This document shows positions 2,329 through 63,443 of a stretch of DNA of 64,000 bases, piece after piece. How positions within the stretch are numbered: position 1 is the stretch's first letter; every line of letters starts with the position of its first letter. This DNA comes from a virus (Duplodnaviria > Caudoviricetes). Below the pieces are notes generated by a model. The model saw nothing but the letters and a program-made list of their open reading frames with translations. It was not told where the DNA came from and ran no database searches. The position numbers and the translations under genes were made by a program. The stretch is taken from positions 128,001 through 192,000 of the IMG/VR virus record IMGVR_UViG_3300046820_001270; one strand, given 5' to 3'.

Positions 2329-2689
2329 ACCATTCAAGTTCTTCCAAAAGAATATAAAGAGAAAATGGTATTTGAGGAGTGATTACCTTGGTCAAATACA
2401 ATGGATGTATAGGCCTGTGGGTGTAATATTCTATATGGAAAATAGATGGGATGGAAATTTTTATACCGAGGAATTAAAGACGATGACGGTGACAGTTACA
2501 AATAGATATATCAATTCATACAATCATTTTATGGAAATGAGTAGAGATAAGATTATATTTGTATATGAATTCGTGGACAACACAAATATAAGTAATATGA
2601 TACATTACAACGAAGATAATTTTGATGACATGCCAAAGGATAGACCACTAATATTCAGAGGAGTAATAAGAGACAATGAAACCATTTAA
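2321..2689 (+). CDS. hypothetical protein, MKxFKF leader family
   Basis: starts MIKPFKFFQK. Confidence 0.65.
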   Translation: MIKPFKFFQKNIKRKWYLRSDYLGQIQWMYRPVGVIFYMENRWDGNFYTEELKTMTVTVTNRYINSYNHFMEMSRDKIIFVYEFVDNTNISNMIHYNEDNFDDMPKDRPLIFRGVIRDNETI

Positions 2690-2882
2690 ATTCCTCCAAA
2701 GCGAAAAAGATATACCAACACCACAGGATATAAGGAATAGTCCGTGGTTGAGAGGTGTATTTAGACAGGGATGGAACGCAAGATCACAAGGTATTGATAG
2801 TCCACCACCCGAATATAGAGTTTCCCGTAGAACATTGAATGCGTGGTATCAGGGATATTGGGCCTCACAATATAGAGGTTAG
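2676..2882 (+). CDS. small protein, MKxFKF leader, RMF-like motif
   Basis: MKPFKFLQ start; FRQGWNARSQG...PEY...AWYQGYW. Confidence 0.55.
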   Translation: MKPFKFLQSEKDIPTPQDIRNSPWLRGVFRQGWNARSQGIDSPPPEYRVSRRTLNAWYQGYWASQYRG

Positions 2883-2897
2883 ACATATTTATATACA

Positions 2898-4022
2898 ATG
2901 AAGTTTTTAGATCTAATAAACGAAGACGAACAATCCGAATGGAACAAATTGTTTAAGAAAACCCAATTGGTTTTTAAAACGTTGAGGAAGGGGAGAATAC
3001 GCACACATTCGAATGTGGTCTTTAGTTATGAAATACCAGAAGATAGTCATATAAGTGTTGCTAGTTCACATGGTAAGGATGACCTCACAGCCTATATTAT
3101 GTGTGAAAAAATTAAGATAAAAGAAGAATCTAAAGAATGTTCTCATGTGTCTTTTGGTAAGTTTGGTGAATTGATTAAAAGAAAGTTTGATCATTTTGGT
3201 ATAATGTTTATTTTTAACGTTTACCCTGAAGATATTGAGAAATACAAACACGAGACCATTAATGAAGTTTTAGACCATCAGGACGAAGAAAGTACAAACT
3301 TAACCGATGACCAATTAAAACAATTAAAGAGAGCTAAAACGGTATACAAAGCTTTAAAGAAAGGAAAGGCCACCTTTAATTTAGCATCTTCATTTGATGA
3401 ACCAGATGAACATACAATAAAATATGAATTAGGTGATCCTTATTATTATTGGATATATGTTGCAGGTACCAATACATTTAGAATAGAAATATCAAAAATT
3501 ACAGTTTATATTGATACTCGTGAATTCTACGAAAGGGCCATTAGTAAAGAAATAATTAAAGGAAGTTATAAAACGATGGAATGGATATTACTTCATAATC
3601 TAATTGCTCCACGTGTTAGAAAGAGATTTGGAAATAATGATATTGAGATAAGAATTGCCGATGCAGATTTAAAGTTTGAATATGTTGAACCACAACCCAT
3701 TAATGAGGACAAAGATAGAAGAATAAAAAGAGCACATACAATATACAAAGCACATAAAAAAGGTTTATTAAACAAAGGTGAACATGGTAATGTTAGATAT
3801 GAATTACCCGATGTATATGATGTTAGATTAAGATCATTAGATGATCAAATGATTATTGAGGTGGGATATGAGGGAGACGATAATGAGGTAAAGTTTTATT
3901 TTGGACCTAATGAAGATGGTAAGTATAAACTTACAAAACCAGGACCAAAATATTATGGACCATTTATAGAGAGATTATCTGATAAGTTTTTTGAACCATA
4001 CGATATAAAATTAATTTTTTAA
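2898..4022 (+). CDS. three-repeat 'KAKTVYKALKKG' family protein with MKxLDxINE leader
   Basis: three internal repeats each following an INE; TATTTATA just upstream. Confidence 0.75.
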   Translation: MKFLDLINEDEQSEWNKLFKKTQLVFKTLRKGRIRTHSNVVFSYEIPEDSHISVASSHGKDDLTAYIMCEKIKIKEESKECSHVSFGKFGELIKRKFDHFGIMFIFNVYPEDIEKYKHETINEVLDHQDEESTNLTDDQLKQLKRAKTVYKALKKGKATFNLASSFDEPDEHTIKYELGDPYYYWIYVAGTNTFRIEISKITVYIDTREFYERAISKEIIKGSYKTMEWILLHNLIAPRVRKRFGNNDIEIRIADADLKFEYVEPQPINEDKDRRIKRAHTIYKAHKKGLLNKGEHGNVRYELPDVYDVRLRSLDDQMIIEVGYEGDDNEVKFYFGPNEDGKYKLTKPGPKYYGPFIERLSDKFFEPYDIKLIF

Positions 4023-4738
4023 TGAAGTTATTGGATATCATATTAGAAGACGAGAATAAGGAAAAACTTATTAAGAAAGCCAAGACAATATACAAAGGTG
4101 TTAAGACCGGAGTTGTTCGTAAAGGTGTGTTCGGTAAAGTTGTATACGTACTCCCTGATGTATATGATGTTCAAATAGATATACATGATGAGATCTTTAT
4201 TAAGGTTGGAGGTAATAGAACAGAGAATGGAGTTAAATTCTATTATGTGGATGATACAGATGGTGAAATGAAACCATTAAGAGTAAATCCTACAGAATAT
4301 CAATTAAACATAAAAAGAATTGAAAACAAAAAATTTACACCATTCGGAATATATTTGTGGTATGAAGAAAGTGATAATTGGGAGAAACCTGAAGTTGTGA
4401 ATGAAAATGAAGATAGTGATCGTACAAGAAAGAGAGTTAAGAATGTTTATCATGCATTAAAGAAAGGGATTGTACACAGGAATGAAAGTGGTATAATATA
4501 TTACGAACTACCTGATGAATATGATTATAAGGAGAAAGGTTATGGAGATCCTCCTTTTCCTGTGGTGTTTGTGGGAAATCATCATCATGAAAATAGTATA
4601 AGGTTTTTCCAACAAGATTACAACACAAGTAAAGAAGATAGAAGAGAATTAGATATACCGGCATATGAATACAATACATTACTTGCTCGAATAGGTGTGT
4701 TGTTCGATAAATTTAATATAAGTTTCCAAAGATATTAA
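4022..4738 (+). CDS. two-repeat 'KAKTVYKALKKG' family protein
   Basis: MKLLDIILE leader; KKAKTIYKGVKTG and KRVKNVYHALKKG repeats. Confidence 0.75.
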   Translation: MKLLDIILEDENKEKLIKKAKTIYKGVKTGVVRKGVFGKVVYVLPDVYDVQIDIHDEIFIKVGGNRTENGVKFYYVDDTDGEMKPLRVNPTEYQLNIKRIENKKFTPFGIYLWYEESDNWEKPEVVNENEDSDRTRKRVKNVYHALKKGIVHRNESGIIYYELPDEYDYKEKGYGDPPFPVVFVGNHHHENSIRFFQQDYNTSKEDRRELDIPAYEYNTLLARIGVLFDKFNISFQRY

Positions 4739-4739
4739 T

Positions 4740-5144
4740 ATGAAACTATTAGATATAATAAACGAAAACGAAGATAAAAAAAGAAAGAAGATTAGGGCCG
4801 TATTTAAAGCACTTGATAAAAAGGTATTTCGTAAGGTTCACATACGTAAGATATTTTACGTTCTTCCCGATCATTATAAGGTTTTAGGGGACAATGAACC
4901 GGGACTTGACCAATACAAACGTAAAAGACGTTATGGTGATGACGTTATATTTGTTCAAGTGGGGCACGATGGTGAGAATAATCAGGTTAAGTTCTTCTAT
5001 ACAACAGAAGGGGAGGATAAAATAGAAAGGTATATACCAAATAATATTGATCAGTATAGTGCTAATTTATCATTTGTTAATGATAAATTCAAACCATTTA
5101 ATATACGAATGGTTTTTAAACGTCATAATGGTGAATGGGAATAA
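4740..5144 (+). CDS. single-repeat 'KAKTVYKALKKG' family protein
   Basis: MKLLDIINE leader; KKIRAVFKAL...DKFKPFNI. Confidence 0.7.
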   Translation: MKLLDIINENEDKKRKKIRAVFKALDKKVFRKVHIRKIFYVLPDHYKVLGDNEPGLDQYKRKRRYGDDVIFVQVGHDGENNQVKFFYTTEGEDKIERYIPNNIDQYSANLSFVNDKFKPFNIRMVFKRHNGEWE

Positions 5145-5180
5145 ATTATAAAGGGTTCTAATAAGGACCTTTTTTTATGA

Positions 5181-5311
5181 CCCACCCAACCGCGAACGGG
5201 ACTTCCGGCGCCCGAGATCCAACTATATCTATTTACATATAAATCACTTTATAATATCTTTATTATATCCAAAAACATATAATTTCTAAAGCGACTGGAG
5301 CTCCTCAGTCC
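5181..5311. repeat. ~130 bp intergenic dispersed repeat, copy 1
   Basis: GGGACTTCCGGCG..GAGATCCAA and TATAATTTCTAAAGCGACTGGAGYTCCTCAGTCC shared with 6747-6951. Confidence 0.8.
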
Positions 5312-5349
5312 TTTAATTATATTATCAATTAATGGGATATTTATTTAAG

Positions 5350-6468
5350 ATGAAGTTTATAGACACATTTACTGAGGACGATAGGAAGAAGTTAATCAAG
5401 AAGGCCAAGTTAGTCTTTTCTGTATTAAAGAAAGGAACAATTACCCGTTCAGATGGTGTGTCATTTAGTTACATACTCGGGGATAATATGAAACCAATCG
5501 TAGTAGATGGTGAGATAGAGATTTTTGCATTCATTTCCAAGATAATAGAAAAAACTTATTGTCCATTAAGTATACATGCGATTAAAGAATTAATTATTAA
5601 GAAATTCGAACATTTCAATATCAATGCAGAATTTTATAATACTGACAACACTCAGATAGAGAAATACCAAGGAAAGAAACCGTGGGAGAAGGACGAACTA
5701 AACGAAGAGGGAAGATTAGTTAAGAAGCAGGACCCAAATGAGGAAAAGAGGGTAAAAACCATTTTTAAAGCATTTAGAAAGGGAGTGATAAAGGTTCAAC
5801 ACCCAAGAACAAACGAGATCATCAAGTTTAGATATTATATAAATGATCCTGTATTTTTTACATGGGAATATTATAATATGATGGAACAACAACTTACCAT
5901 TATTACCAACAACTTCCCTGGTGAAGGTATAACCATTTACTGTGATGATAAAGATGTGGTAGACAAATGTACAAACGATATAGAATCCATATCAAAGAAC
6001 CCAACGGGTATCCATCTGAGGGAAATGTTTATGAATAAACTTAAAAGAAAATTCGACAATTTAGATGTTAGTTTTTATATTAATAAAAAAGGTATGAAGT
6101 TTGTTTTAGGTGAACCAACTGAACTAAACGAAGAGAAGGACAACAATCTTACCGAAAAGAACAGGAAGAAGATAGAACTTATCTATGGTTTATTTAAGAC
6201 GGGGAAGTATAAGGTAGATGATTTAATATACACATATGTTCTTCCCGATGACTACTGGACATCAAATGATGATGAATCGGGGGAACTTATTATTGTTCTT
6301 ACCATGAACCCACAACAGAGGATGAAACTATATGCAACGATGGATAATGGTAATCTAAGTATAAGTCCCGGAACGGAAGTGGAAACACAATACCATCATT
6401 TACACAATAATGCAAAGGAAAGGATTAAAAAGAAGTTTGCAAGGTTTGGTATAGATATAATATTTTAG
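5350..6468 (+). CDS. three-repeat 'KAKTVYKALKKG' family protein
   Basis: MKFIDTFTE start after GATATTTAT motif; three repeats separated by LNE. Confidence 0.75.
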   Translation: MKFIDTFTEDDRKKLIKKAKLVFSVLKKGTITRSDGVSFSYILGDNMKPIVVDGEIEIFAFISKIIEKTYCPLSIHAIKELIIKKFEHFNINAEFYNTDNTQIEKYQGKKPWEKDELNEEGRLVKKQDPNEEKRVKTIFKAFRKGVIKVQHPRTNEIIKFRYYINDPVFFTWEYYNMMEQQLTIITNNFPGEGITIYCDDKDVVDKCTNDIESISKNPTGIHLREMFMNKLKRKFDNLDVSFYINKKGMKFVLGEPTELNEEKDNNLTEKNRKKIELIYGLFKTGKYKVDDLIYTYVLPDDYWTSNDDESGELIIVLTMNPQQRMKLYATMDNGNLSISPGTEVETQYHHLHNNAKERIKKKFARFGIDIIF

Positions 6469-7605: not shown

Positions 7606-8202
7606 ATGAAAAAGAAAGACATATATAGAAAAGAAGTAGAAGTAGGAAAGAAATATAATAAGCTATTGATTACAGAAATATCACACCATGATAGTAACAA
7701 TATTCTATGGGTATGGACACTATGCGATTGTGGTACTGTAAGGAAGAAAATGGGTATGGCTGTAGTAAATGGAACCACAAAGGATTGTGGATGTAGTAAA
7801 CCAAAACTCACTCGTGAAGAAAAGGAACTACTACCTGACTGTTGGTATGAGATGAAGAACATCATACTCATATATAAGAGACATGCAAGAGATAGGGGAT
7901 ATGAGTTTAACCTTACAGATGAACATGTACTTGATCTTATACAACAAAATTGTTTCTATTGTGGAATACCTCCGAGTAATTTTAGAAAGAGATCTACTAA
8001 GTACGTAAAGAAAGATACGAGTTTTTATTATAACGGAATTGATAGGATAGATGGTGAACCTTTCTATAATGAAGATAACACCGTTACTTGTTGTAGTAAG
8101 TGCAACACTGCCAAGAGTGATATGAACCAGAAGGAGTTCATGGATTGGATTAGTAGGTTAGTTGGACATCAGATTGAGACAGATAATATTGGAGTAATAT
8201 AA
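7606..8202 (+). CDS. HNH-type homing endonuclease-like protein
   Basis: CDCG..CGC N-terminal module; CFYCG...GIDRID...CCSKCNTAK. Confidence 0.8.
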   Translation: MKKKDIYRKEVEVGKKYNKLLITEISHHDSNNILWVWTLCDCGTVRKKMGMAVVNGTTKDCGCSKPKLTREEKELLPDCWYEMKNIILIYKRHARDRGYEFNLTDEHVLDLIQQNCFYCGIPPSNFRKRSTKYVKKDTSFYYNGIDRIDGEPFYNEDNTVTCCSKCNTAKSDMNQKEFMDWISRLVGHQIETDNIGVI

Positions 8203-8206
8203 AGAT

Positions 8207-8515
8207 ATGGCAAGGAAACAATTTCAGAAGATGGTTAAGGAATGGAAGGAGTGTGGTCCTAAGGAGGTATTTGAGGGTGTAAGGGATAACTTCATCTTCG
8301 GGTTCTTGGGAGCCATGATCATTGTATTCGTTTCTACCCGTACAGACATCATGGTCCTTGTTGGATATCTATCTTATTACTTCTTCATGGGAAGGATTGT
8401 TAATCGTCCTAAGTATGTTACCGATCTTGGTAAGATGATTGTGTTCCCTATCCCTTCAGCACTCGGAGCCTTCACAGGGTATAAATTGTCCATGATATTA
8501 CAGAGTTTATTGTAG
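8207..8515 (+). CDS. small membrane protein
   Basis: three hydrophobic segments. Confidence 0.65.
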   Translation: MARKQFQKMVKEWKECGPKEVFEGVRDNFIFGFLGAMIIVFVSTRTDIMVLVGYLSYYFFMGRIVNRPKYVTDLGKMIVFPIPSALGAFTGYKLSMILQSLL

Positions 8516-9253
8516 TATGTCTCCGACATCCGTGTCGGGAACATCCTGTTTATCCCCCGAAGGACCCGTTAGGGTCCGCAGTAATCGGTACAAATATAGT
8601 ACAAAAATCCCACCTTTAGACCCCTGAAAATTACCCCTAATTTATCCCCGATATTGACCCCTGTAGAGGGGTTTTATTTGTACCTTTTTATCGTAGGGTT
8701 TAAATTGGTCTAATAATCCCACTTTTACTAATATTTATTGATTGTAGATATCCCAGCGTCATTTTGGGGAGAAAGTGGGGAAAAGTGGTAGTATGTGGGG
8801 ATTGACCCTCGACCGAAGTAAGGACCATATCCTAAAAAATTTGAATATATAACTGTAATACGGGGTCCTTCGGACCCCTTCAGGTCTGTCATAGTGTCAT
8901 ATATAGTTATATATAATAACCCTTTATATATGTAATACGGTGATCTGTAATACCTTACATTCTATTTAACATAAAGTACGTTATAGGTTCACAAGTTATC
9001 CACATTACTGACCCTTGTCATACACCCTGAAGGGACGACCGTAGGATCGTCCCGTAATACTTGCCAAACAATATCAGGGAAATTAATGTTTAACCATTTA
9101 AGTGTAATACTTACACAAAACTTGCCAAACAATATTACAGGTCTTTTGGGCCAAACACATTTGTCCGTCATACATCCGTTCGTCTACGGTAATACATAAA
9201 ACCTGAAGGGGACCCTATGGGTCCCCGAAAGTAAGCTTATTATGTAATACGAA
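8516..9253. other. non-coding convergent junction with GC-rich hairpins and GTAATAC repeats
   Basis: no credible ORF; hairpins GGACCCGTTAGGGTCC, GGGGTCCTTCGGACCCC, GGGGACCCTATGGGTCCCC; strand switch. Confidence 0.55.
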
Positions 9254-10162
9254 TTAATATCCTATGTCGAAGTTCTTAAAACGTTTCTTTAGATATTCAC
9301 GGAATTCTTTTTGTTCCTCGTCAGACAGAGGTGATTCCTCGGGGGAGTTCTTTTTACCATCAACAATTTCCCACCCAAAGTTACAGGTGATTTCGAAGTT
9401 AGGATGTAATACCTTATCGGCTCTATTGTAGTTAAACTTATCTTGATGTATCACAAACCCCTTGGACCAATCATGTGGTTCGAACAATTCATATGTATGA
9501 CCTCTCCATGTTCCTCTCTTCAGTGCGTTATACACAGACCTGGCTTTCTTTACCAACTTGGACATTGCCAGAGAATATCCGTCTGAGAAGGTTGGAAGAT
9601 CCCCTTGGGTTAAACTATACGTATTTAACAGATGTGATCTTGAGAACATGATACCACCGAACTTTTGTGGGGACAGAAGTTTCAAGTTATACGTCGGAGT
9701 ATCCATGTAGTCCCTTAGGTGAAGTATACCTTGACCAGGATGGACAGATATATTCTGTAATTTCAAATGATAACAATCAATTAGATCAGGAGGATAGATC
9801 GATGGTTTATTCATTAGATCAGGATTAATCTTAAGTAGACTATCGACGAAGTCAGCTACAGATACCTGTAGGATATTCAAAGGGATCTCAGGATTTGGGT
9901 TCATGTTTGGCATGTAGTCAATTCTAAGATTGATCTCCCCAAGATACTTCTCCTCATTATACCTAACAAAGGTGTATGGTATTTGGTCCAATTGAACTGA
10001 ATAATGTATCTCACCTTCAGGTATTTGGAACTTCCTATAGAACATATGTTCCTTCTTAAACTTCTGCACAGTCTGCACGAATTTTTCACTGGCAAACTTA
10101 AACTTGTCATTAGGGATATTATCCTGTTCCTCCGTTAATCCTTTTAATTTACTTAGTCTCAT
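9254..10162 (-). CDS. 'KAKTVYKALKKG' family protein with extra N-terminal domain
   Basis: KKARSVYNALKRG...KKRFKNFDI; TATTTATA upstream on minus strand. Confidence 0.7.
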   Translation of the reverse strand: MRLSKLKGLTEEQDNIPNDKFKFASEKFVQTVQKFKKEHMFYRKFQIPEGEIHYSVQLDQIPYTFVRYNEEKYLGEINLRIDYMPNMNPNPEIPLNILQVSVADFVDSLLKINPDLMNKPSIYPPDLIDCYHLKLQNISVHPGQGILHLRDYMDTPTYNLKLLSPQKFGGIMFSRSHLLNTYSLTQGDLPTFSDGYSLAMSKLVKKARSVYNALKRGTWRGHTYELFEPHDWSKGFVIHQDKFNYNRADKVLHPNFEITCNFGWEIVDGKKNSPEESPLSDEEQKEFREYLKKRFKNFDIGY

Positions 10163-10282
10163 AGTATATAAATATTGCCAAACAACATTGGATCGATCAG
10201 ATCCTGAAGTTCCTGTTGTTCCTAATGTACCATATGTTCCTGATGTTTCTTGCCAAACAATATCAGCATCCTGCGTCTTCGA

Positions 10283-10540
10283 TCAGGATAGTGGTTCTAC
10301 AGATACAGTTCGTCTATTGTTCTTACCAGTCTTGAAGGTCATTATACCATCTGCTGTAGCAAATAGTGTATGATCAGAACCCATACCGACATTGCTGCCA
10401 GGATAGTACTGTGTTCCTCTCTGGCGGATGAGGATGTTACCAGCTCGTGCTGACTGTCCACCGTGGATCTTTAATCCTAATCTTTTGCTGTGTGAATCAC
10501 GACCGTTCTTTACGGACCCTTCACCTTTCTTGTGTGCCAT
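10283..10540 (-). CDS. rpmA: 50S ribosomal protein bL27 (phage-encoded)
   Basis: [27 protein letters not shown]...[10 protein letters not shown]...PG.NVG.G.DHTLFA..DG: full-length L27 signature. Confidence 0.95.
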
Positions 10541-10574
10541 ATTCTTTTGTTATTTACTGTTTACTATAAATAAT

Positions 10575-10600
10575 AAACCCCCCACAATAGTGGAGGGTCC
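10575..10600 (-). terminator. intrinsic terminator upstream of rpmA
   Basis: minus strand CCCTCCAC-TATT-GTGGGGG followed by TTT. Confidence 0.6.
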
Positions 10601-10623
10601 ATTATTGTTCGTCTATAATACGA

Positions 10624-10821
10624 TTACGCCGTCTTCAATAATTGGTTACGGAAAGTAATTGCTGTTCTCTTGTTTGAGAAGTTCTTAGAGATCTTATTAC
10701 CGTTAACAGATGCTCTTACGCGGTATGAACTACCGTCGAAATATACATTGTTAGATACTGGTACATAAGTTGTCTTGGTGCGACGAGCTGTACTCTTACG
10801 AGTTGTTGTTGTTTTTTTCAT
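10624..10821 (-). CDS. small basic AP2-like DNA-binding protein
   Basis: NNVYFDGSSYRVRASVNGNKISKNFSNKRTAITFRNQL resembles the AP2 three-strand/helix pattern; start at MKKTT. Confidence 0.5.
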   Translation of the reverse strand: MKKTTTTRKSTARRTKTTYVPVSNNVYFDGSSYRVRASVNGNKISKNFSNKRTAITFRNQLLKTA

Positions 10822-11061
10822 AATCATTAATTGTTTATAATAAAATATAACACCAATTATTGATAATAAAAAATTTAAGGCAACTTTTTTTTGGATTTCT
10901 CGAAATTTAATTTGCCAAACAACATTCCACAGACTCACTGTCCCGATCAGTACTTCTCCTCTACATGATCATACCACACATCTCCCCACTTACCACACAT
11001 GTAGTTGAAGTGTTCCTCAGTACTCATGAGGTAGTAAAGGATATGTTTGTCCCATATGAAC

Positions 11062-11244
11062 TTAAACTTTGTCATGGTATTTAATTTCAATGTTAACACT
11101 GTCTAAATTGAAGGTGTCGTAGAAATCTTGTAGGATCTCTATCTTGGCCCTTCCCACCCAAGGCAAGAGAAACCCCGAATCCATCTTTCGTTGGATCTTG
11201 GATATCTGATCCCTAACCCATAGTTTAACTAATTGATCATTCAT
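11062..11244 (-). CDS. hypothetical protein
   Basis: 60 aa ORF in minus operon. Confidence 0.5.
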   Translation of the reverse strand: MNDQLVKLWVRDQISKIQRKMDSGFLLPWVGRAKIEILQDFYDTFNLDSVNIEIKYHDKV

Positions 11245-11614
11245 TTTCTAATATTTTATATTGTTTATCACCAACAGTATCCAAGATATATGCAACCTCT
11301 ACTATATCCTCCAAGTCGTAGGTGGACAAGTCATCGAACTCATCCCCTTCTTGGTTCATACCCGTTAAGTACTGTCCATCGGTCATAGTCTTAACAAGGT
11401 ATGGTACCTTGATCCAATAACCTGACATATCCTCCTCACTGACATAGACATTGAATGGTTGATCAAACTCTATGGTCTGACCAAGTTGGAATAGATTCTC
11501 TATTTCGTTACAAAACTTAATCCTTAAGTTCTTAACTTCTTCTCTTGAGTTGTAGTTCATATTAATCTTCGTTGTTTTCGTTATCAAATTCTTCTTCCTC
11601 ATCTTCATTCTCAT
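11237..11614 (-). CDS. hypothetical acidic protein (true start probably near 11560)
   Basis: ORF track; N-terminus overlaps upstream gene. Confidence 0.6.
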   Translation of the reverse strand: MRMKMRKKNLITKTTKINMNYNSREEVKNLRIKFCNEIENLFQLGQTIEFDQPFNVYVSEEDMSGYWIKVPYLVKTMTDGQYLTGMNQEGDEFDDLSTYDLEDIVEVAYILDTVGDKQYKILENE

Positions 11615-12149
11615 CTAAGAGGTCCTCATCGGAGTTCCCAAGATACTCTAATCTAATTCCCACAATCTTATCACCATCCATCATTACATCCATAGGATAT
11701 AGTCCATCACCAATACCTGATGAGGTTACCACACCTGTGTCATACAAACCCCATTGGTTTTCAGATAAGGTAAATCTACACATCTTCTCATACCACTTCT
11801 CTCCACCATCGTCCTTTCTATATTGTCCAAGACTGAAGTCACTCTCGGGTGTTGTAATACCTTCAGACATTTCATCGTTACGATAACTTGTCATACAGAA
11901 GACACCACACTGTCCACTATCAACACCACATTCACTGTGTTGTTCCCAATCACCATCATCTACATAATCCTCGTGGATTACTGTAATACTTGACACTCGG
12001 GTACCCCAACCTGTTCCTTCATCGTGTCTATCTACCTCGACATTGTACTTACCGGGTAATACATTAGTTAATTTAGTTTGACACCAAGTGTCGGGTGTAT
12101 AACAAGGGTCAGACACCATTACATTTTCGGAGAGAGTAATTTGATTCAT
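11562..12149 (-). CDS. DUF4241-like protein
   Basis: VSDPCY...VDSGQCG...SGIGDGLYP motifs. Confidence 0.55.
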   Translation of the reverse strand: MNQITLSENVMVSDPCYTPDTWCQTKLTNVLPGKYNVEVDRHDEGTGWGTRVSSITVIHEDYVDDGDWEQHSECGVDSGQCGVFCMTSYRNDEMSEGITTPESDFSLGQYRKDDGGEKWYEKMCRFTLSENQWGLYDTGVVTSSGIGDGLYPMDVMMDGDKIVGIRLEYLGNSDEDLLDENEDEEEEFDNENNED

Positions 12150-12174
12150 TTTAATTTAGTTTAGTTTATGGGGA

Positions 12175-12206
12175 TAAAGTTAAATTGTTTATTCGAATAT
12201 ACCAAA
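12175..12206 (-). promoter_or_regulatory. Bacteroidota sigma70-type promoter
   Basis: TTTG-N20-TAACTTTA on minus strand. Confidence 0.65.
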
Positions 12207-12207
12207 T

Positions 12208-12702
12208 TTAGTTGGAATATATTTTAGTAAAGTTATCCACATTTTCAATAATAGTTTCTAACATAGATGTCCTTAACTTGTAATACACCTTCTTCATAAA
12301 GTCCTCATTGCCAAACAATATCTGAGGATCCACTGTCATCCCATTCGGGAAGTAGAGGTCTATAGGATCAATTAGAACTCTGAGTTCATTGATGTCATTA
12401 TCGGTTCTGTAGAAATTTGTTCTGGCATAGATGTACTTGTCCTTAACGGTATATAGTTTCACATTGCCAATCAAGTTTGACAGTGATCGGATCTGAAGTA
12501 CTATAACTTCTAAATCAGACAACTCTTGTATATCGGTCTTCATCGCAGTTACTCGTTCCTTGTACAGTTCCACGAATTTTGCCAAACCAATTTCGGGATG
12601 GAGATCCGTCCCGTGGTCATCAGTTATGAATTGTTCCCACTGCGGTATAGTCTCTTGATCACCTACCACTTTAAGGAAAACTCCGTTGTTTAATTTGCCC
12701 AT
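12208..12702 (-). CDS. hypothetical protein
   Basis: 164 aa ORF; carries TGCCAA motif copies inside the coding sequence. Confidence 0.6.
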   Translation of the reverse strand: MGKLNNGVFLKVVGDQETIPQWEQFITDDHGTDLHPEIGLAKFVELYKERVTAMKTDIQELSDLEVIVLQIRSLSNLIGNVKLYTVKDKYIYARTNFYRTDNDINELRVLIDPIDLYFPNGMTVDPQILFGNEDFMKKVYYKLRTSMLETIIENVDNFTKIYSN

Positions 12703-12926
12703 GATAATGGATTTAAAAAGTTAATAATTTTGCCAAACAAATTCCCACCAGCAGATCTTGTCTGTCCAAGGAAAACTTTTGTGTTAAACACATTGCCTCC
12801 ATAGTATCGTGTGGGTTTAGTGTATCCACTTGCCACACCATATTGGCGGAACCACTCGTCTTGAGTCAGTTGTTTTTCGGGGTAAGTAGTCTTACTCACC
12901 TTCGGTGTCGTCGTCATCTTCGTCAT
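12690..12926 (-). CDS. hypothetical protein
   Basis: 78 aa ORF in operon. Confidence 0.5.
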   Translation of the reverse strand: MTKMTTTPKVSKTTYPEKQLTQDEWFRQYGVASGYTKPTRYYGGNVFNTKVFLGQTRSAGGNLFGKIINFLNPLSWAN

Positions 12927-13542
12927 TGTTATTAATTGTTTCGTTATAAATTCTTGTTAATTCTACCTTGTCTTCATCTGATACGAAATCGAATTCGGTT
13001 AGGAAGTCCTCTAATGATAGTTCCTCATCTACAATACAATCACTTCTATATTCTACTTCAGACCAAAACTCCTCTCTTGAGTATTTGTATATTCCCTCAA
13101 GATATCCACATTCGTCGTCATATACTTCCAACTCACCATGCACCCAATTAAATGTGGTTTCACCAGCAAACCCTACTCCTCCTTCAGAATAGAACAGGTA
13201 CGCATTCACCTTGTACATCTCACATAAGTTCTGTAGGAATGGAATCGGTGGTGACCAAGCCGTTTCACAACTCAAAGTGATTTCATCTTTACTGAATGTA
13301 AATGAATGTTCCTCATATGAGATGTCCCATTTAGTTCCAAACCATTCAATGTTAGTGTCGTACCATTTCTCCTTGTAATCACCATCAGACATATGTTGAG
13401 GTAATCCTATGAGGGATTGAAACACATTATCACTTGGACCATCATCATCAGATGACTTAAGGGATTTGATAACGGATGTGAGAGTACGAATTGTACCCTC
13501 ATCACCGCTGATTTTAATGTAGTTGTTGCACCAATTTGGCAT
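12892..13542 (-). CDS. DUF1281/YubB ferredoxin-like family protein
   Basis: MPNWCNN start; WFGTKWD; F/CETAWSPP motifs. Confidence 0.8.
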   Translation of the reverse strand: MPNWCNNYIKISGDEGTIRTLTSVIKSLKSSDDDGPSDNVFQSLIGLPQHMSDGDYKEKWYDTNIEWFGTKWDISYEEHSFTFSKDEITLSCETAWSPPIPFLQNLCEMYKVNAYLFYSEGGVGFAGETTFNWVHGELEVYDDECGYLEGIYKYSREEFWSEVEYRSDCIVDEELSLEDFLTEFDFVSDEDKVELTRIYNETINNNDEDDDDTEGE

Positions 13543-13548
13543 AGTATA

Positions 13549-14145
13549 TTAGTTTTCTTGTTCTTGTTTAAAATCATTTAGGAACTCGTCCTCAAATGGT
13601 AAGTTATTTAACTGATAAGATTTAATCAATTTGATTGGATGATAATCACTACCCTTTTCAGTTAGATTAAAGAACCTATCCTCTATTGTTAGTGGTTCTT
13701 TATTAAAACCCTCGTAAACTTCTAATTTGTTATTATCCAAATCTACAAGATATGCCCACTCACAGAATAAACTATCACCTGCGAAGTCTGTGCTATCGGT
13801 AATCCAAATCTCATCTTCTTCACCATCTCTAATCATTTCGAGAATTCTAGCACCATTATCTCTTGTGAGGTATGGATACTTCTCTTGATATAACTTCGAC
13901 TGGTCTCCTGTCATCCAACCATTCTCACATCCAATAGTCTTTAACCAATTCTGAATTTCTTTCTCTTTGTTTCCGTTTGTAAAGAAAACTTTGTTTAGTT
14001 TGTTTTTAAATTCTTCCAAATTAGTTGTTTGTAAGAACTCTAATACAATAACACCATTACCTGATGGGTATCCATCCCATTGTCCGTATTGTGCTACCTT
14101 TGTTTCTCCATTGGAGATTACCATTGTTAAATTTCTTGTTCCCAT
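13549..14145 (-). CDS. hypothetical phage protein (YxQWDGYP family)
   Basis: MGTRN...QYGQWDGYPSG...EWAYLVDLD. Confidence 0.7.
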   Translation of the reverse strand: MGTRNLTMVISNGETKVAQYGQWDGYPSGNGVIVLEFLQTTNLEEFKNKLNKVFFTNGNKEKEIQNWLKTIGCENGWMTGDQSKLYQEKYPYLTRDNGARILEMIRDGEEDEIWITDSTDFAGDSLFCEWAYLVDLDNNKLEVYEGFNKEPLTIEDRFFNLTEKGSDYHPIKLIKSYQLNNLPFEDEFLNDFKQEQEN

Positions 14146-14165
14146 AGTTTTATAAGTTTAGGACA

Positions 14166-14197
14166 CAAAGATAAAGTTTATATTTTTATCCAACAAA
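14166..14197 (-). promoter_or_regulatory. Bacteroidota sigma70-type promoter (perfect consensus)
   Basis: TTTG-N20-TATCTTTG. Confidence 0.85.
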
Positions 14198-14216
14198 TTT
14201 ATTTCAAAGTTTTTTT

Positions 14217-14233
14217 TGTTAAAATGTTGTTAA
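14217..14233 (-). promoter_or_regulatory. TTAACA-N5-TTAACA direct-repeat box
   Basis: same box upstream of promoters at 16060, 17386, 18473, 19373. Confidence 0.7.
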
Positions 14234-14428
14234 AGGATTTTACCAGAAAAACTGGTAGGCGCAGCTGGCTGATATTGATTGGCAACATTTGCGCTGTAAA
14301 ATCCAGCAGAGGCGCACAGGGGGAATTTGTTTGGCAAACATAACTCGTTGATAATCAATAAAACTAATTTTGCCAAACAACATCGGTGCTGTGCTGCGCT
14401 AGAAATTTAAATTGCTTCATTAGTGCGC

Positions 14429-14460
14429 AAAAAAATCCCCCGTACTTCTACGAGGGATCG
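14429..14460 (-). terminator. intrinsic terminator
   Basis: hairpin CCCTCGTAG-AA-GTACGGGGG with T-run on minus strand. Confidence 0.6.
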
Positions 14461-14487
14461 AACTAAACTTACTAACCCACACCTTCT

Positions 14488-14664
14488 CTATTTACTTTGT
14501 AATACGTCTTTAAATAATTTTAAAGAACCATTTATTATAGTCGTCTCTTTAATCGCATCATCTATTGATTTAAAACTCTTGTGTAATACGAAAGTCTTGC
14601 TATCATTGGAATACCAAACATCATACGTTTTTTTACTTGGAGATAAAATTATCTTCGTGGTCAT
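14488..14664 (-). CDS. small hypothetical protein (58 aa, below ORF-track cutoff)
   Basis: MTTKIILSPSKKTYDVWY...; TACCTTTG element upstream, terminator downstream. Confidence 0.55.
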   Translation of the reverse strand: MTTKIILSPSKKTYDVWYSNDSKTFVLHKSFKSIDDAIKETTIINGSLKLFKDVLQSK

Positions 14665-14903
14665 TGTTATACGGATTTAATGAAGTACAAAGGTAATACA
14701 TATTTTATTACAAACCAACAAATTTTTAAATTTATTTATTTTTTTATTATATGTGAAAGATTTAATCAAAAAAGTTAAACAGATCTTGCCAAACAATATC
14801 TCACCAGGCCCATTACTGGTATTACATCTAATAAAAATGGAGATCCGTAGATCTCCATTGTACAACTAACCAAACACTTAATTATTAAACACTATATAAT
14901 ATA

Positions 14904-15188
14904 CTAAAAATTTTTGACTTGGTCAACTTTATTAGAGAAAACTTCTAATACATCACCTCGACCATTCATGTTGTATATCTCAGCCGTAGATTCACCACCA
15001 TTATCACTTGGTTGTAATACTTCCTTTGTATCCATAATCTCTTCCCAACTAATCTGTTCAAGGTCTCCGTCTTCATACATTTGTTTGGCAATCTTAACTG
15101 CCTCGTTTAAGTCGTTAGCCTTAACTTCAAAGTCGGTTCTCATCCATGTTGTAACCTTTTGGTCTAAAAAGAATTCAAATGTTTTCAT
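14904..15188 (-). CDS. hypothetical acidic protein
   Basis: 94 aa ORF. Confidence 0.65.
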   Translation of the reverse strand: MKTFEFFLDQKVTTWMRTDFEVKANDLNEAVKIAKQMYEDGDLEQISWEEIMDTKEVLQPSDNGGESTAEIYNMNGRGDVLEVFSNKVDQVKNF

Positions 15189-15191
15189 ATG

Positions 15192-15431
15192 TTAAAATTT
15201 ATTTCTTACACCCACCTTACGAAACAAATCGTCGTACGGGTCTGTTTTTGGTTTTAGTGATTCATTAATTAGTGTGATATCAGCTTCGGATATTTCATCC
15301 ACAAACTTCTTATCCAAATCGTCGAGATGTCTGCCAGACAATTTGTCGAATCCTCCCATCTGATATTTGGGATAGATAATCTTGGTTTCTGTGTCGATTA
15401 CTGATGCTACGGAGTTTAGTTCTACTATCAT
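15192..15431 (-). CDS. hypothetical protein
   Basis: ORF in coupled operon. Confidence 0.6.
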   Translation of the reverse strand: MIVELNSVASVIDTETKIIYPKYQMGGFDKLSGRHLDDLDKKFVDEISEADITLINESLKPKTDPYDDLFRKVGVRNKF

Positions 15432-15664
15432 GGTAAATCGTTTTCGGTGATTGTTAATATAGTTTCTATATCATATTTAAAACTTATCAAATACTCAAAC
15501 ATCTTCTCATCACTCTCAATAATTTCTTGTTTGGTAATTGGTGAACTATTCCAATTATCGTAGAAATTATTAATCACTGCGTTTCTCAAACCTTTAATGG
15601 TAAAATACATTTCATCTGACGATGTATCTTCCTTATCTTTTAATTTTAAAATATCTATTTTCAT
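15428..15664 (-). CDS. hypothetical protein
   Basis: ORF overlapping neighbours by 4 nt. Confidence 0.6.
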   Translation of the reverse strand: MKIDILKLKDKEDTSSDEMYFTIKGLRNAVINNFYDNWNSSPITKQEIIESDEKMFEYLISFKYDIETILTITENDLP

Positions 15665-16002
15665 ATTAATTGTTTTAATTTGTAATTAAATTCTTCTCTC
15701 ATACCTTCTACATCATAAACCTTCTTGGTCTCGTCGTCGTTGGGATGATAGAAACTAATATCCACCTCAATTTTATTACTTGGAAGGATTTGTTTCATAA
15801 GATAATCTACAACCTTACCACCGATAATTTCTTTCACCTCTTCAATCTCTTCCTCGTTCTCCACATCAATAGTGATACCACCTTGAATTAAATTATCAGT
15901 AACCTCCTCAATAAATTCATCACAAGAAATACTTTCGATGAATTGTGTGTGTTTGTCGGCGAATATGTCATTCACCATTTCAGATACAATTTGTTTGTCC
16001 AT
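15661..16002 (-). CDS. hypothetical acidic protein
   Basis: first gene after promoter at 16022. Confidence 0.65.
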   Translation of the reverse strand: MDKQIVSEMVNDIFADKHTQFIESISCDEFIEEVTDNLIQGGITIDVENEEEIEEVKEIIGGKVVDYLMKQILPSNKIEVDISFYHPNDDETKKVYDVEGMREEFNYKLKQLI

Positions 16003-16021
16003 GTTTAATAAGTTTAGACCA

Positions 16022-16076
16022 CGAAGATAATTGTTTTTTCTTTATCAAACAAATTGATTTGTTAAAACTTTGTTAA
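16022..16076 (-). promoter_or_regulatory. Bacteroidota-type promoter plus TTAACA-N5-TTAACA box
   Basis: TTTG-N20-TATCTTCG; box at 16060-16076. Confidence 0.75.
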
Positions 16077-16221
16077 AGAAATTAACAGATGTATTACCTG
16101 TGATCCGAGCTGTATTATTGTTTGGCAGAAATGTCAAGTTTATTGCGCAGAAAACTTGACAAGTGTTATAGTTTTATATAAAAAGGTAACAAGTGTAATA
16201 CGTTGTTGCCAAACAACTTTG

Positions 16222-16296
16222 GGTACATGAGGAACAAGTGGCACTTCAGGAACATCTTGGAGGAACTTGTGGCACTTCGGGAACTTGAGGAACAGC
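16222..16296. repeat. 9-bp-periodic GGAAC/GGCAC tandem repeat
   Basis: ggtacatgaggaacaagtggcacttcaggaacatc...; similar arrays at 10203-10250 (reverse) and 19962-20003. Confidence 0.65.
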
Positions 16297-16416
16297 AGAT
16301 CCCAACAATTTGATTGGCAATTGCCAAACAACAATGTAAGCTCACCAGGCGCTAGTATTTGTAATACGATTGCCAAACAACATTCCTCGCCGGCACTGTG
16401 CCTATTTTGATAAAAT

Positions 16417-16443
16417 AAAAAACCCCCTACTTTCGTAGAGGGT
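16417..16443 (-). terminator. intrinsic terminator
   Basis: CCCTCTAC-GAAA-GTAGGGGG + TTTTTT on minus strand. Confidence 0.75.
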
Positions 16444-16469
16444 CGGGAGGGAAAACACAAACCTAACTA

Positions 16470-17318
16470 TTAAACCATATGAACCAAATCTGAAAATATC
16501 TCTTGTTCTACTTGACCAATACCACCGAACATTTTTGCTTCGGTATTATCGTTCTTACTATAAGAGTGTGTAGTGTATTTTGTTACACCACTAAATAAAC
16601 CCCACATATTATCACCCTTTTGAGACAACTCACCATTTAAGTCAATATAAAATCTTGATAAGTTATTACGTGTTCTCGTTGATAAAGCATCTCCATCATT
16701 TAAATCAACTTCAGGTTTGATGCCAAACAATTTTCGAGTCACCTTCTCCTTCAACAAATCGTCAAAACGTGTTTCACTTAATTCAGTAATGAATCTGAAT
16801 GTTTCCTTCTCTTCTTGCAAAACAATATCCAAACGTCTGCAGATGTCTTCAACTTTTAAAGACATAGACTTTGTGTGTCGAACTTTGTTTTGAAGTCCAC
16901 TCATAACTCTAAAGAACGTGTTCATACAACTGATAGTTGTATTAGAATGACCGAATGCCAATGATGTTGAACCATCAAAAGAATTCACACCCGTTAAGAA
17001 ACCTTCGATGCGGTCATTGCCTAACTTCAAATCATTTCCTTTTAATTGAACGTAGATACGACCACCATCCTTGAACTCACCTCCACGATGAATTTCTAAA
17101 CCCGTTCTACCTGATACTTGATGTAATAAGTCCATCAACTCATAATTCTGATAAGGAACATAACCATCAGAATGCAAACCAACAATCATGTTGTTGTCAT
17201 CTCTAACTATTGCCTTTTTGTTTGGAATACTAATACCACTAATGGTTTGTAATTCCTCTTGGCGAACCGTCCAATTAAGGTTGGTCTTGTCCAATAATGT
17301 TTTTACTTGTTCATTCAT
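16470..17318 (-). CDS. DUF932/DUF945 family protein (TIGR03299-like)
   Basis: LNWTV...KKAIVRDD...Y.P.QN...GGRIYVQ...NSFDGS...CMNT. Confidence 0.8.
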   Translation of the reverse strand: MNEQVKTLLDKTNLNWTVRQEELQTISGISIPNKKAIVRDDNNMIVGLHSDGYVPYQNYELMDLLHQVSGRTGLEIHRGGEFKDGGRIYVQLKGNDLKLGNDRIEGFLTGVNSFDGSTSLAFGHSNTTISCMNTFFRVMSGLQNKVRHTKSMSLKVEDICRRLDIVLQEEKETFRFITELSETRFDDLLKEKVTRKLFGIKPEVDLNDGDALSTRTRNNLSRFYIDLNGELSQKGDNMWGLFSGVTKYTTHSYSKNDNTEAKMFGGIGQVEQEIFSDLVHMV

Positions 17319-17336
17319 ATTAATTTATTTAGAGTG

Positions 17337-17402
17337 TAAAGGTAGTCTTTTTATATTACCCACCAAATATTATTTAATCTTTTTTTGTTAAAGTTTTGTG
17401 AA
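17337..17402 (-). promoter_or_regulatory. Bacteroidota-type promoter plus TTCACA-N5-TTAACA box
   Basis: TTTG-N19-TACCTTTA; box 17386-17402. Confidence 0.7.
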
Positions 17403-17643
17403 AGGATCTGTAATACGAGAATAGGATCTGTGACGCACTGTAAATATTGATTGGCAAATGCCAAACAACATTAACTGAGTAAATTAATCCAAGTCGTGTT
17501 GTCCTGTTTTTTATATAATAAAGTGGACATATGTAATACGAACTTGCCAAACAATATATTTGCATGCGCATGGTAAAATCTGTGGACATAAAAAAAGGGA
17601 TTGTCTTACGACAACCCCCGTTCCTATTATTCACTAACCAAAT

Positions 17644-18390
17644 CTAAAACCTTAAATTAACTTTATTACTTCTCTTGTAATTGTAGATGTCCTCAATCAT
17701 TTCTACATATTGGTCTACCGTACCACAAGCAACTAAATTGTTTGGTCTTAACTTAACTTTGTGTAAGAACTCACTAAACACAAACTCTTTCTTATTTGAA
17801 ACAACTTTGATAAAAGCTCTTACGAAAATAGCTTTAGTGTAATACTTCTCAAAGTAAGGTTTCAACTCTAATATATAACCCGCCCACTCACGAGCTTTTT
17901 TCTCATTCTTAACAACATACTCACCACTTTCAAAAGTATCTCTCTTGATTGTTGATAATGTGTTGTTCAATAACATTGCAACTTCCGTGTATTTAAACAT
18001 TGGAAATTCATTTACGAATTGATTGAAAGTAACGTAGTGTGAATTACCTTTTGTTACAAACTTGTGTAAGTGGTCAAAGGGTGACCAATTTCTTTGTAAG
18101 GTATTCATACTTGTCATTTCATCACTACCTGCACCTTTTGTTACTTTATAACGAATTGGTGTGTTAGCAGACATTGCAGCTTTTACTCTGTGTTGTCCGT
18201 CAATAACTTCACCATTACCATTTAAAGTTACAACTGATGATGATAACCAACCATTTTGTTTCATACGATTAGCTAACTTCTTTACATGATTTTGATTAAC
18301 TAAACGATTGTCGCCACGAAACTTAAAGATTGAATAATCTTTTGTTTCAAAGATTTCACCTACTTTTTTTCCAACTTGAATCTTGTTCAT
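17644..18390 (-). CDS. ParB/Srx-like N-terminal domain protein (DGQHR motif)
   Basis: NRLVNQNHVKKLA...VIDGQHRVKAA. Confidence 0.8.
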   Translation of the reverse strand: MNKIQVGKKVGEIFETKDYSIFKFRGDNRLVNQNHVKKLANRMKQNGWLSSSVVTLNGNGEVIDGQHRVKAAMSANTPIRYKVTKGAGSDEMTSMNTLQRNWSPFDHLHKFVTKGNSHYVTFNQFVNEFPMFKYTEVAMLLNNTLSTIKRDTFESGEYVVKNEKKAREWAGYILELKPYFEKYYTKAIFVRAFIKVVSNKKEFVFSEFLHKVKLRPNNLVACGTVDQYVEMIEDIYNYKRSNKVNLRF

Positions 18391-18422
18391 TTTAATTATT
18401 TTTTAGATTAATGAATAGAGAA

Positions 18423-18489
18423 CAAAGGTCTATATAATAATTGATATAAACAAATATCTTTTATAATATTTCTGTTAAAGTTTTGTTAA
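18423..18489 (-). promoter_or_regulatory. Bacteroidota-type promoter plus TTAACA-N5-TTAACA box
   Basis: TTTG-N20-GACCTTTG; box 18473-18489. Confidence 0.7.
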
Positions 18490-18695
18490 GGTGTAATACG
18501 AAGATTTCCCGTCTGCATCTGTGGTGATGTTGATTGGCAAGATCTCACCAGTTGGTTTCCAGCTCAGGACCAGTGACGATATTGATTGGCAATGCCAAAC
18601 AATAAATGCACGTGCGCTGTTGTCACGGGGGTTAAGTGTAATACGTTTGCCAAACAAGTTCTGAGATGGATCCGAACCAACACTTCTTGTAAATA

Positions 18696-18722
18696 AAAAA
18701 CCCCCGAATTACTTCGAGGGTC
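18696..18722 (-). terminator. intrinsic terminator
   Basis: CCCTCGAA-GTAA-TTCGGGGG + T-run. Confidence 0.7.
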
Positions 18723-18749
18723 TTCACCTTTTCTCAACCTTATGTATTT

Positions 18750-30050: not shown

Positions 30051-30288
30051 AGTGTTTTCTCCCTTTTATAATATTTATATGATATATTTATACATATGAG
30101 TAAAAGAATTATTAAATTATCAGAATCTGATATTAAGAAACACATACAAAATGTAATTTCAGAACAACCAACTAACATACAACGAGATGCTAGTAGACAA
30201 AGTAAAATGATTCCACAAAAAGATGAAGGTGAATTTTATAATATTATAACCGGTAAATGGGAACCTGACGTATTAAAGAAAAGTCCTA
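29476..30288 (+). repeat. 87-bp near-identical direct repeat (29476-29562 and 30202-30288)
   Basis: one mismatch; encodes KMIPQKDEGEFYNI(K/I)TGKWEPDVLKKSP in two adjacent genes. Confidence 0.9.
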
Positions 30289-35869: not shown

Positions 35870-35881
35870 TATTTATATCTA

Positions 35882-38587: not shown

Positions 38588-38647
38588 TTAATGAACCCTT
38601 CAGAAATGAGGGGTTTTTTATTATATCTATAGGGATATTTATATACA

Positions 38648-43299: not shown

Positions 43300-43359
43300 G
43301 TTATATATAAATACTTTAAAAAGATAAGTTGTATTTATTAGTATATAAATAGAAAAATT

Positions 43360-57066: not shown

Positions 57067-57078
57067 TATTTATAAAGT

Positions 57079-57447: not shown

Positions 57448-57532
57448 TTAAATCTTTATTTTTAACCCAAAAAAGGGTATTTTTCCCTATACCAATATCG
57501 TTTTCAAAAGTTTTATTGGATATTTATAAACT

Positions 57533-59677: not shown

Positions 59678-59702
59678 TAAAATATAACAAATATTTATAT
59701 AA

Positions 59703-63044: not shown

Positions 63045-63443
63045 AGGTGGAGACGAAGGGAGTCGAACCCTTGTCTTTCCTGTTCAACAATAAATGACTA
63101 CACGTTTATTCAATTGGTTCTCAATTGACAAATAGAAGGTTAATATCAGGAAACCATCAATACTGTTCCTAACCGGATTTTCAAGAGCCGTCAAGTTTGC
63201 TCCAACACTCTAGGGTTATGTTCCACCGAAAGGACTTCTGTTCCTAGGTTATATGTCCGTCGACCCGTGCGTAGAGGCTAATCTAATTAGGCTGCTACTT
63301 TAGAAGTTGCAAGAATACCTGCAATTTCCATTGTGTTGTAAACGTTGTCGTTTAATTTTCTTCACCGTGGATTTAAGTCATAGATGAATTCTGACTACGT
63401 GCCATTTACCCCTGATACCTGAAATCAAATCCAAGGCGTCCCC
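63045..63443 (-). ncRNA. ssrA: tmRNA
   Basis: 5' GGGGACG pairs with 3' CGTCTCC-A-CC incl. G3:U; T-arm GGGTTCGACTCCC; tag ORF 63349-63287 (A)DNVYNTMEIAGILATSKVAA*; TATATTTG upstream. Confidence 0.93.

Follow-up and report, generated by a model that had tools for sequence, protein, structure and literature searches.

Virus-encoded ribosomal proteins blur the usual line between virus and cell. Virus-encoded bS21, bL12, bL9, bL31, bL33 and others were described by Mizuno et al. (2019, Nat Commun 10:752, PMC6375957), the main text of which does not mention bL27 or bL21. Those genes are like the one considered here in that they are host-derived auxiliary genes under purifying selection, frequent in aquatic viruses, and their products have been suggested to take the place of their cellular counterparts in the ribosomes of the host. 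A difference is that loosely bound, exchangeable proteins are stressed in that survey. bL27 by contrast is a late-assembly protein with a tail reaching the peptidyl-transferase centre.

A phage bL27 is nevertheless on record, since bL27 and bL21 were described in 2025-2026 from PhiMa05 / MaAM05, a jumbo phage of Microcystis (ISME J 2026, PMC13157829; GenBank MW495066 rpmA), and so the statement in a preliminary description of the present DNA that bL27 is not known to have been characterised in phages does not hold. The likeness to PhiMa05 is considerable: there too a full-length host-derived bL27 came by horizontal transfer into a phage with a genome above 250 kb, and again bL21 plays a part. 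However the bL27 of PhiMa05 groups with Vampirovibrio-like bacteria (PMC13157829) and in the tree described below lies far outside the Bacteroidota clade, and it stands in an rpsA-rplU-rpmA row of native appearance, with further cell-like genes around it, whereas the DNA analysed here (64,000 nucleotides, positions 128,001 to 192,000 of IMG/VR record IMGVR_UViG_3300046820_001270, referred to as the window) holds a lone 287-bp L27 cassette between phage genes, patchy in close relatives, with no bL21 found in the window. Because the PhiMa05 L27 falls so far outside the phage clade seen here, the two acquisitions are taken to be independent. A search of the literature found no work on L27 exchange and no jumbo-phage L27 or L21 report besides PhiMa05. 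The window group is thus a second, independent phage bL27 group, with a donor from another phylum, a cassette that stands alone and a presence that varies among relatives. The earlier report concerns one cyanophage only, in a very cell-like region, and the window case is independent and cleaner, offering a traceable donor group, a single origin, long purifying selection and two insertion sites.

The preliminary description took the gene for an intact full-length L27, and this is confirmed by profile matches and by alignment. Pfam Ribosomal_L27 (PF01016) matches the ORF at E 4.9e-35 and 119.9 bits (cut-off 20.5) over model positions 1-79 of 79, the NCBIfam equivalog TIGR00062 gives 117.7 bits, above its cut-off of 90.35, and residues 1-84 are alignable with solved bL27 chains (9i5t_Z, 24yw_W). 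Chain alignments and column counts find the beta-sandwich core motifs (GN-I, RQRGT, PG-NVG-G-DHT-FA) in place, and the N-terminal (M)AHKK tail carries no propeptide. Positions of the gene and of the elements around it are collected in the table.

Table. Features at and around the bL27 gene, in window coordinates
Feature	Position	Strand	Description
bL27 (rpmA) CDS	10283..10540	(-)	85 aa, intact, ATG to TGA
L27 cassette, insertion/deletion unit	10280..10566	(-)	leader + CDS + 3 nt, 287 bp; from junction comparison with L27-less relatives
L27 leader	10541..10566	(-)	26 nt, with rplU-rpmA spacer remnants (AGTAAATAAC ... AAAAGAA) as in the spacers of L015, L016, L018; remnant in L103
TATTTATA octamer	10565..10572	(-)	24 nt before the L27 ATG; terminator U-tract plus first two cassette bases
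Intrinsic terminator hairpin of upstream 65-aa gene	10569..10606	(-)	17-bp stem, UAUU loop, U-rich tail
CGTATTATA box	10614..10622	(-)	just after the stop codon of the upstream 65-aa gene
Upstream phage gene	10624..10821	(-)	65 aa; 64-98% identity in relatives
Spacer, L27 to 302-aa gene	10176..10260	(-)	two TTGTTTGGCA boxes (10251-10260, 10176-10185), no terminator
Downstream phage gene	9254..10162	(-)	302 aa; TATTTATA 4 nt before the ATG (10167-10174); homologues adjoin the 65-aa gene in L27-less relatives
TATTTATA near-ATG copies	2886-2893, 10167-10174, 23362-23369, 24167-24174, 25769-25776, 30085-30092		
TATTTATA near-ATG copies, continued	35870-35877, 38636-38643, 43306-43313, 57067-57074, 57521-57528, 59692-59699		
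tmRNA	63045-63443	(-)	Rfam 80.7 bits (cut-off 47); ARAGORN tag peptide DNVYNTMEIAGILATSKVAA

The window belongs to a giant tailed phage of lake water, since related records that encode terminase and tail sheath share the genes flanking L27. It is of 32% G+C and its ORFs are mostly without family, those families that are found being homing-type endonucleases, DUF932, an Api92-like DUF1281_C, a glycosyltransferase PHROG and tmRNA, together with lysins (PG_binding_1 with GH19; glucosaminidase). The DUF932 protein (window 16470-17318) served as marker for relatives and led in IMG/VR to 14 related records, including contigs of 335,630, 316,007 and 269,133 bp. The 335-kb relative, G001, is 100% complete by CheckV, and both it and the 269-kb G002 encode a large terminase, detected in the relatives with Terminase_6N (the Terminase_6C profile gave no match there), and a tail sheath. 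A megablast of window 8-14 kb against GenBank phages returned no match. The 65-aa and 302-aa genes on either side of L27 have homologues in IMG/VR giant-phage records, in the same order around the L27 position, and so the phage-family flanks claimed at the outset are upheld by homology and synteny.

Whether the gene truly belongs there was judged from loci of other samples and, for 9000-11500, from contigs of public runs aligned to the window. L27s 96% identical to that of the window, and flanked as in the window by the 65-aa gene upstream and the 302-aa gene downstream, occur in L008-L010 (two other JGI samples and one Logan run), and L136, a 12.9-kb metagenome contig, has L27 with the same flanking genes. 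From an independent lake study a single contig of 2134 nt covers 9202-11362 at ~95% identity, its only break against the window being a 46-nt stretch replaced in the spacer after L27. Uncovered stretches in RNA run X24 (10596-10847) and in DNA run X3 (below 10008) are holes in the contig data and not evidence. An assembly chimera or contamination with host DNA is conceivable in principle, as the hybrid contig L093 (see below) shows that cross-joins of bacterial and phage rpmA can occur in such metagenomes, but for the window it is practically eliminated: both L27 junctions recur in at least five contigs of other samples or studies, no bacterial gene lies beside the window L27, and the GC3 of L27 (0.37) matches that of its phage neighbours. 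Near-identity to a host rpmA, which the preliminary description had named as fatal to its reading, is likewise ruled out, the best bacterial match being only ~77-78% identical in amino acids and L27 lying outside any rplU-rpmA context.

As to the origin of the gene, a search of ~5.8 billion representative proteins gave a top match of 96%, next one of 79% (the hybrid L093) and then a group at 72-75%, followed by a long run of Chitinophagaceae L27s (Hydrobacter, Sediminibacterium, Asinibacterium). Within the 72-75% group every member with fetched context is on a phage contig syntenic with the window gene block, the genes in common including DUF4314, a 174-aa and a 76-aa gene, DUF932 and DUF1281_C. 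Among cellular L27s the closest, whether from the protein collection or from GTDB genomes, belong to Chitinophagaceae (66-78% identity). In a maximum-likelihood tree of 56 L27 sequences, with a Cytophagales outgroup and the hybrid L093 left out, all 11 L27s of phage context form one clade (ultrafast bootstrap 99, SH-aLRT 100, stem 0.61) and the window lineage is on a long branch of 0.73. The phage clade falls inside one formed by freshwater Chitinophagaceae MAGs (L015, L016, L018, with metagenome proteins; support 96/94), which is itself within Chitinophagaceae. The early remark that the variant resembles Chitinophagaceae L27 is therefore borne out by database search and tree. The phage copies share with these Sediminibacterium-like MAGs the first 22 residues and the core motifs, and the leader of the window gene resembles their rplU-rpmA spacer in holding both AGTAAATAAC and AAAAGAA; they differ in lying away from rplU, in phage regulatory surroundings. 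The simplest reading is that rpmA and a piece of its 5' spacer were captured once, long ago, from freshwater Chitinophagaceae. As the rpmA donor is traced to that group, freshwater Chitinophagaceae are also the best guess for the host of the phage, and so L27 supplies a predicted host for this uncultured group of giant phages.

The G+C of the L27 gene, at 45% against 32% for the window, could be read as a sign of recent import, and this is ruled out by the GC3 of 0.37, the same as in the neighbouring genes; since GC3 matches, the excess is put down to amino-acid composition. The whole block that holds L27 is compositionally distinct, window 8000-14000 having a G+C of 37-39% against ~30% in most of the window and genes with GC3 of 0.33-0.50 against a median of 0.285.

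Other candidates for phage or donor L27s were set aside. L093 (ENA ERZ28593909, KRAE22 scaffold_54139; protein P0002) is a hybrid contig of 1573 bp, the left part of which is bacterial and comprises a gene 80% identical to the rplU neighbour in L016/L018, rplU and the first 126 nt of rpmA, whereas from rpmA nt 127 to the contig end, including 219 nt downstream, it is 100% identical to phage contig L005. With an rpmA half bacterial and half of the L005 phage type it was rejected as a bacterial donor at the base of the phage clade. The hybrid protein is on record from two contigs, and L093 is the product of an assembler cross-join at a conserved stretch, or else of genuine recombination between phage and host. 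Searching IMG/VR with L27 peptide patterns matched no relative, which is because the IMG/VR relatives are without the gene, and tblastn of L27 against GenBank phages gave 15 records, MaAM05 among them. Rejected too as a phage L27 was L097 (CAKLQH020000002.1, 'Acinetobacter phage MD-2021a', 254 kb), with the gene row ispB-rplU-rpmA-lolA-serS; that record, or the part of it around L27, is bacterial DNA.

How the gene is distributed among the relatives was followed in 94 DUF932-anchored loci, 14 fetched from IMG/VR and 80 from metagenomes, which cover the site upstream of DUF932 in 68 cases and the window-type site in 19. L27 occurs at two places. In another phage lineage (L001, L005, L091, L094, L098, L099) it lies just upstream of DUF932, and in the window lineage its place is ~6 kb farther on, with the 65-aa gene on one side and the 302-aa gene on the other. 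Just 2/94 of the anchored relatives carry it, one at each site; related phages with a syntenic rpmA exist (L008-L010 and L136, for example), most relatives being without the gene. The L27-less relatives show what the unit is. In L101, with a DUF932 97% identical, and in L104 the sequence ...TTTATT(G/A)TTTA is joined directly to AAGACGA, and L103, from the complete 335-kb genome, retains a 22-nt remnant of the L27 leader and no CDS, a deletion scar. The alignment of G001 to the window runs up to 10191 and resumes at 10552, 74 nt replacing 361, and there is no match to L27 or L21 anywhere in this complete genome. Contigs in runs X3 and X4 also appear to skip L27, with just 29-30 nt on the shorter side of the joints. 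Given the two sites, the L27-less junctions and the leader scar, the stretch 10280-10566 behaves as a small mobile insertion/deletion cassette that is rare, repeatedly lost, moved at least once and long intact where present. Natural variants with and without the cassette are a ready comparison for the effect of an extra bL27 on the phage. The site between L27 and DUF932 is an insertion hotspot; in the P0005 contig (ENA ERZ1426817, genes at 2555-6227) helicase-like (DEAD/ResIII), Eco57I-like and 200-aa genes stand between the two.

Rarity and repeated loss among relatives mean that any benefit of L27 is conditional or small. They would also fit a mere passenger, an rpmA gained by illegitimate recombination and persisting without benefit to the phage, as would the complete relative without L27, the scar in L103 and the want of a conserved promoter of its own in the window-type cassette. 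Against this, L27 is intact although synonymous sites are saturated between the phage lineages, where dN/dS is 0.04-0.16, and pairwise dN/dS is low overall, at 0.04-0.23 (25 computable pairs among 8 phage L27s). The gene has moreover survived a move between two genomic sites, the cassette of the other lineage has a promoter and a terminator of its own, and an unselected ORF of 258 nt would hardly stay open across such divergence. A passenger is on this balance unlikely, and purifying selection has kept the phage bL27 in working form where it is retained.

Regulation of the gene looks different from what was initially proposed. The preliminary description gave L27 an upstream terminator of its own and a late-type motif, and the rival account that follows is of a late gene, driven by TATTTATA, swapping a protein that contacts the peptidyl-transferase centre late in infection. 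A hairpin is indeed present, with a fold of -27.3 kcal/mol (z = -4.23 against shuffles), but because it is conserved in relatives without L27 it belongs to the preceding 65-aa gene. The motif is present as well, and with 34 copies in the window TATTTATA is well above the 15.7 expected; it stands 3-6 nt before the ATG at 12 genes at least. Such a fixed spacing would suit a phage promoter of leaderless or near-leaderless mRNAs, or else a start-site signal. The copy before L27, however, is at 24 nt, unlike the 3-6 nt of the others, and arises where terminator and cassette meet. L008-L010 have TGTTTATA in its place, and L136 lacks it along with most of the leader. An octamer thus mutated or missing in the nearest relatives is not a conserved promoter element; L27 accordingly falls outside the late class with TATTTATA 3-6 nt before the start and conserved in relatives. 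In the other lineage the cassettes use a host-type promoter among early-looking small genes, and the tail reaching the peptidyl-transferase centre is identical to the host's. A late swap driven by TATTTATA is for these reasons very unlikely, and the L27 context of small genes, DUF932 and DUF1281 looks early, not late.

L27 is surrounded by a set of intergenic boxes. Within the window TTGTTTGGCA occurs in 39 copies against 0.29 expected, all within 9062-22562, and CGTATTAYA boxes number 14 against 1.36 expected, 12/14 of them on the minus strand at 8.8-20.3 kb. The window L27 is inside the 9-22.6 kb minus-strand block, the only one with TTGTTTGGCA and with nearly all the CGTATTAYA boxes. Together the two kinds of box fill the intergenic regions of this one gene block, and related boxes, TTTGTTGGCAAG ... 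CGTATTACA ... CTTGCCAAGAAAC, partly palindromic, are seen in distant relatives (L001:11850-12180; L005:1455-1746, 2005-2430). The set has the look of an operator or promoter system conserved in these phages. A GTATTAY-N4-GACGAAC motif was not significant, and a search for Bacteroidota promoters in strict form (TTTG-N17-21-TANNTTTG) gave 7 matches in the window, no enrichment over the 4.2 expected. In the window-type cassette L27 is followed by no terminator and preceded by no promoter that can be recognised as its own, and its transcription would most simply come about by read-through from the 65-aa gene, together with co-transcription with the 302-aa gene. The cassette of the other lineage is a complete unit and comprises, like its neighbours, TTTGTTGGCA and CGTATTACA boxes, a Bacteroidota-type promoter (TTG ... 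TAnnTTTG), L27 and its own terminator. A contig from a metatranscriptome library spans 10110-10417 except for a differing 46-nt spacer segment, and is compatible with these routes, but no more than a weak hint of transcription of L27, DNA carry-over being possible and contigs lacking strand and start.

For the role of the protein, its known place in the ribosome is the starting point. bL27 binds late in 50S assembly and its loss impairs assembly and subunit association, and its N-terminal tail lies beside the tRNA acceptor ends. In all 11/11 phage L27s, as in the sister bacteria, the first 22 residues, which include this tail, are identical. The phage copy therefore leaves the contact with the peptidyl-transferase centre unchanged, which counts against the swap of a protein contacting that centre proposed in the preliminary description. 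From the unchanged host-type tail and the conserved body under purifying selection it is probable that the phage gene is a working host-derived auxiliary gene supplying bL27 to host 50S subunits in infection. An ancestor of the freshwater giant tailed phages (relatives of 269-336 kb) would have captured rpmA and part of its 5' spacer from Chitinophagaceae, and the gene, in the form of a small cassette, would then have changed place between two sites and passed among related phages, under purifying selection where kept, yet so often lost that only a minority of relatives carry it. The phage bL27 would take the bL27 place in the host's own 50S subunits, and its supply may keep ribosome production or repair going as host expression fails in a long giant-phage infection. 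Expression timing, ribosome incorporation and benefit to the phage are the parts of this account that we infer. The gain from an extra bL27 is not obvious, because E. coli ribosomes without L27 form peptide bonds at normal rates (PMC4647459).

The body of the protein has nevertheless its own peculiarities. Two positions near-invariant in the host family are changed in all 11 phage L27s, H46Y and K49S/N, where H46 is found in 44/45 and K49 in 43/45 of the bacteria sampled. M53, H/Y57 and T62 are further differences from the sister bacterial clade, the 3-residue C-terminal extension of which is missing from the phage copies, and the window lineage adds the unique changes V23L, Y26H, L32R, V67M and K71T. 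Y46 and S/N49 with the window-lineage changes could mean an altered or non-ribosomal role. Such a protein might be a specialised or defence-related bL27 that resists or titrates a host or phage factor acting on bL27, or that tunes the 50S toward phage mRNAs, and besides the replaced residues the long stem of the clade and the still longer window-lineage branch would agree with this. The proposal is an improbable one, given that the N-terminal 22 residues and the RQRGT, PG, NVG, DHT and FA motifs are unchanged, that dN/dS is low throughout and that no partner gene travels with the cassette. Supply of an ordinary working bL27 is preferred.

The preliminary description went on to group L27 with tmRNA and RMF-like genes in a toolkit for translation control, and part of this survives. 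The tmRNA is confirmed, while a screen of 66 small and medium ORFs of the window gave no RMF-like family. The tmRNA is conserved in the complete 335-kb G001 and in the 269-kb G002 and so, unlike L27, is a core gene of the phage group.

A wider proposal, to which only a low probability can be given, is that bL27 and, separately, bL21 circulate as mobile cassettes among giant Chitinophagaceae lake phages, that the distinct Y46, S/N49 variant alters ribosomes or resists a factor aimed at bL27, and that the late-assembly step is a general bottleneck which phages relieve. The idea of a general bottleneck comes from two unrelated giant-phage groups, that of the window and PhiMa05, which both drew on the rplU-rpmA pair. 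Apart from this proposal, a sister lineage acquired bL21 in a separate event, which suggests that the pair is a recurrent target. The bL21 gene there (99 aa; L001:11551-11850, also in L002-L004) was inserted so as to follow DUF932 immediately and is confined to one sub-lineage, the near-identical relative L091 being without it. Its identity to bacterial L21 of the same Chitinophagaceae group is 86-87%. The operon partner of rpmA was thus captured separately, and more recently. The bL21 phage versions in the protein collection are three only, and near-identical.
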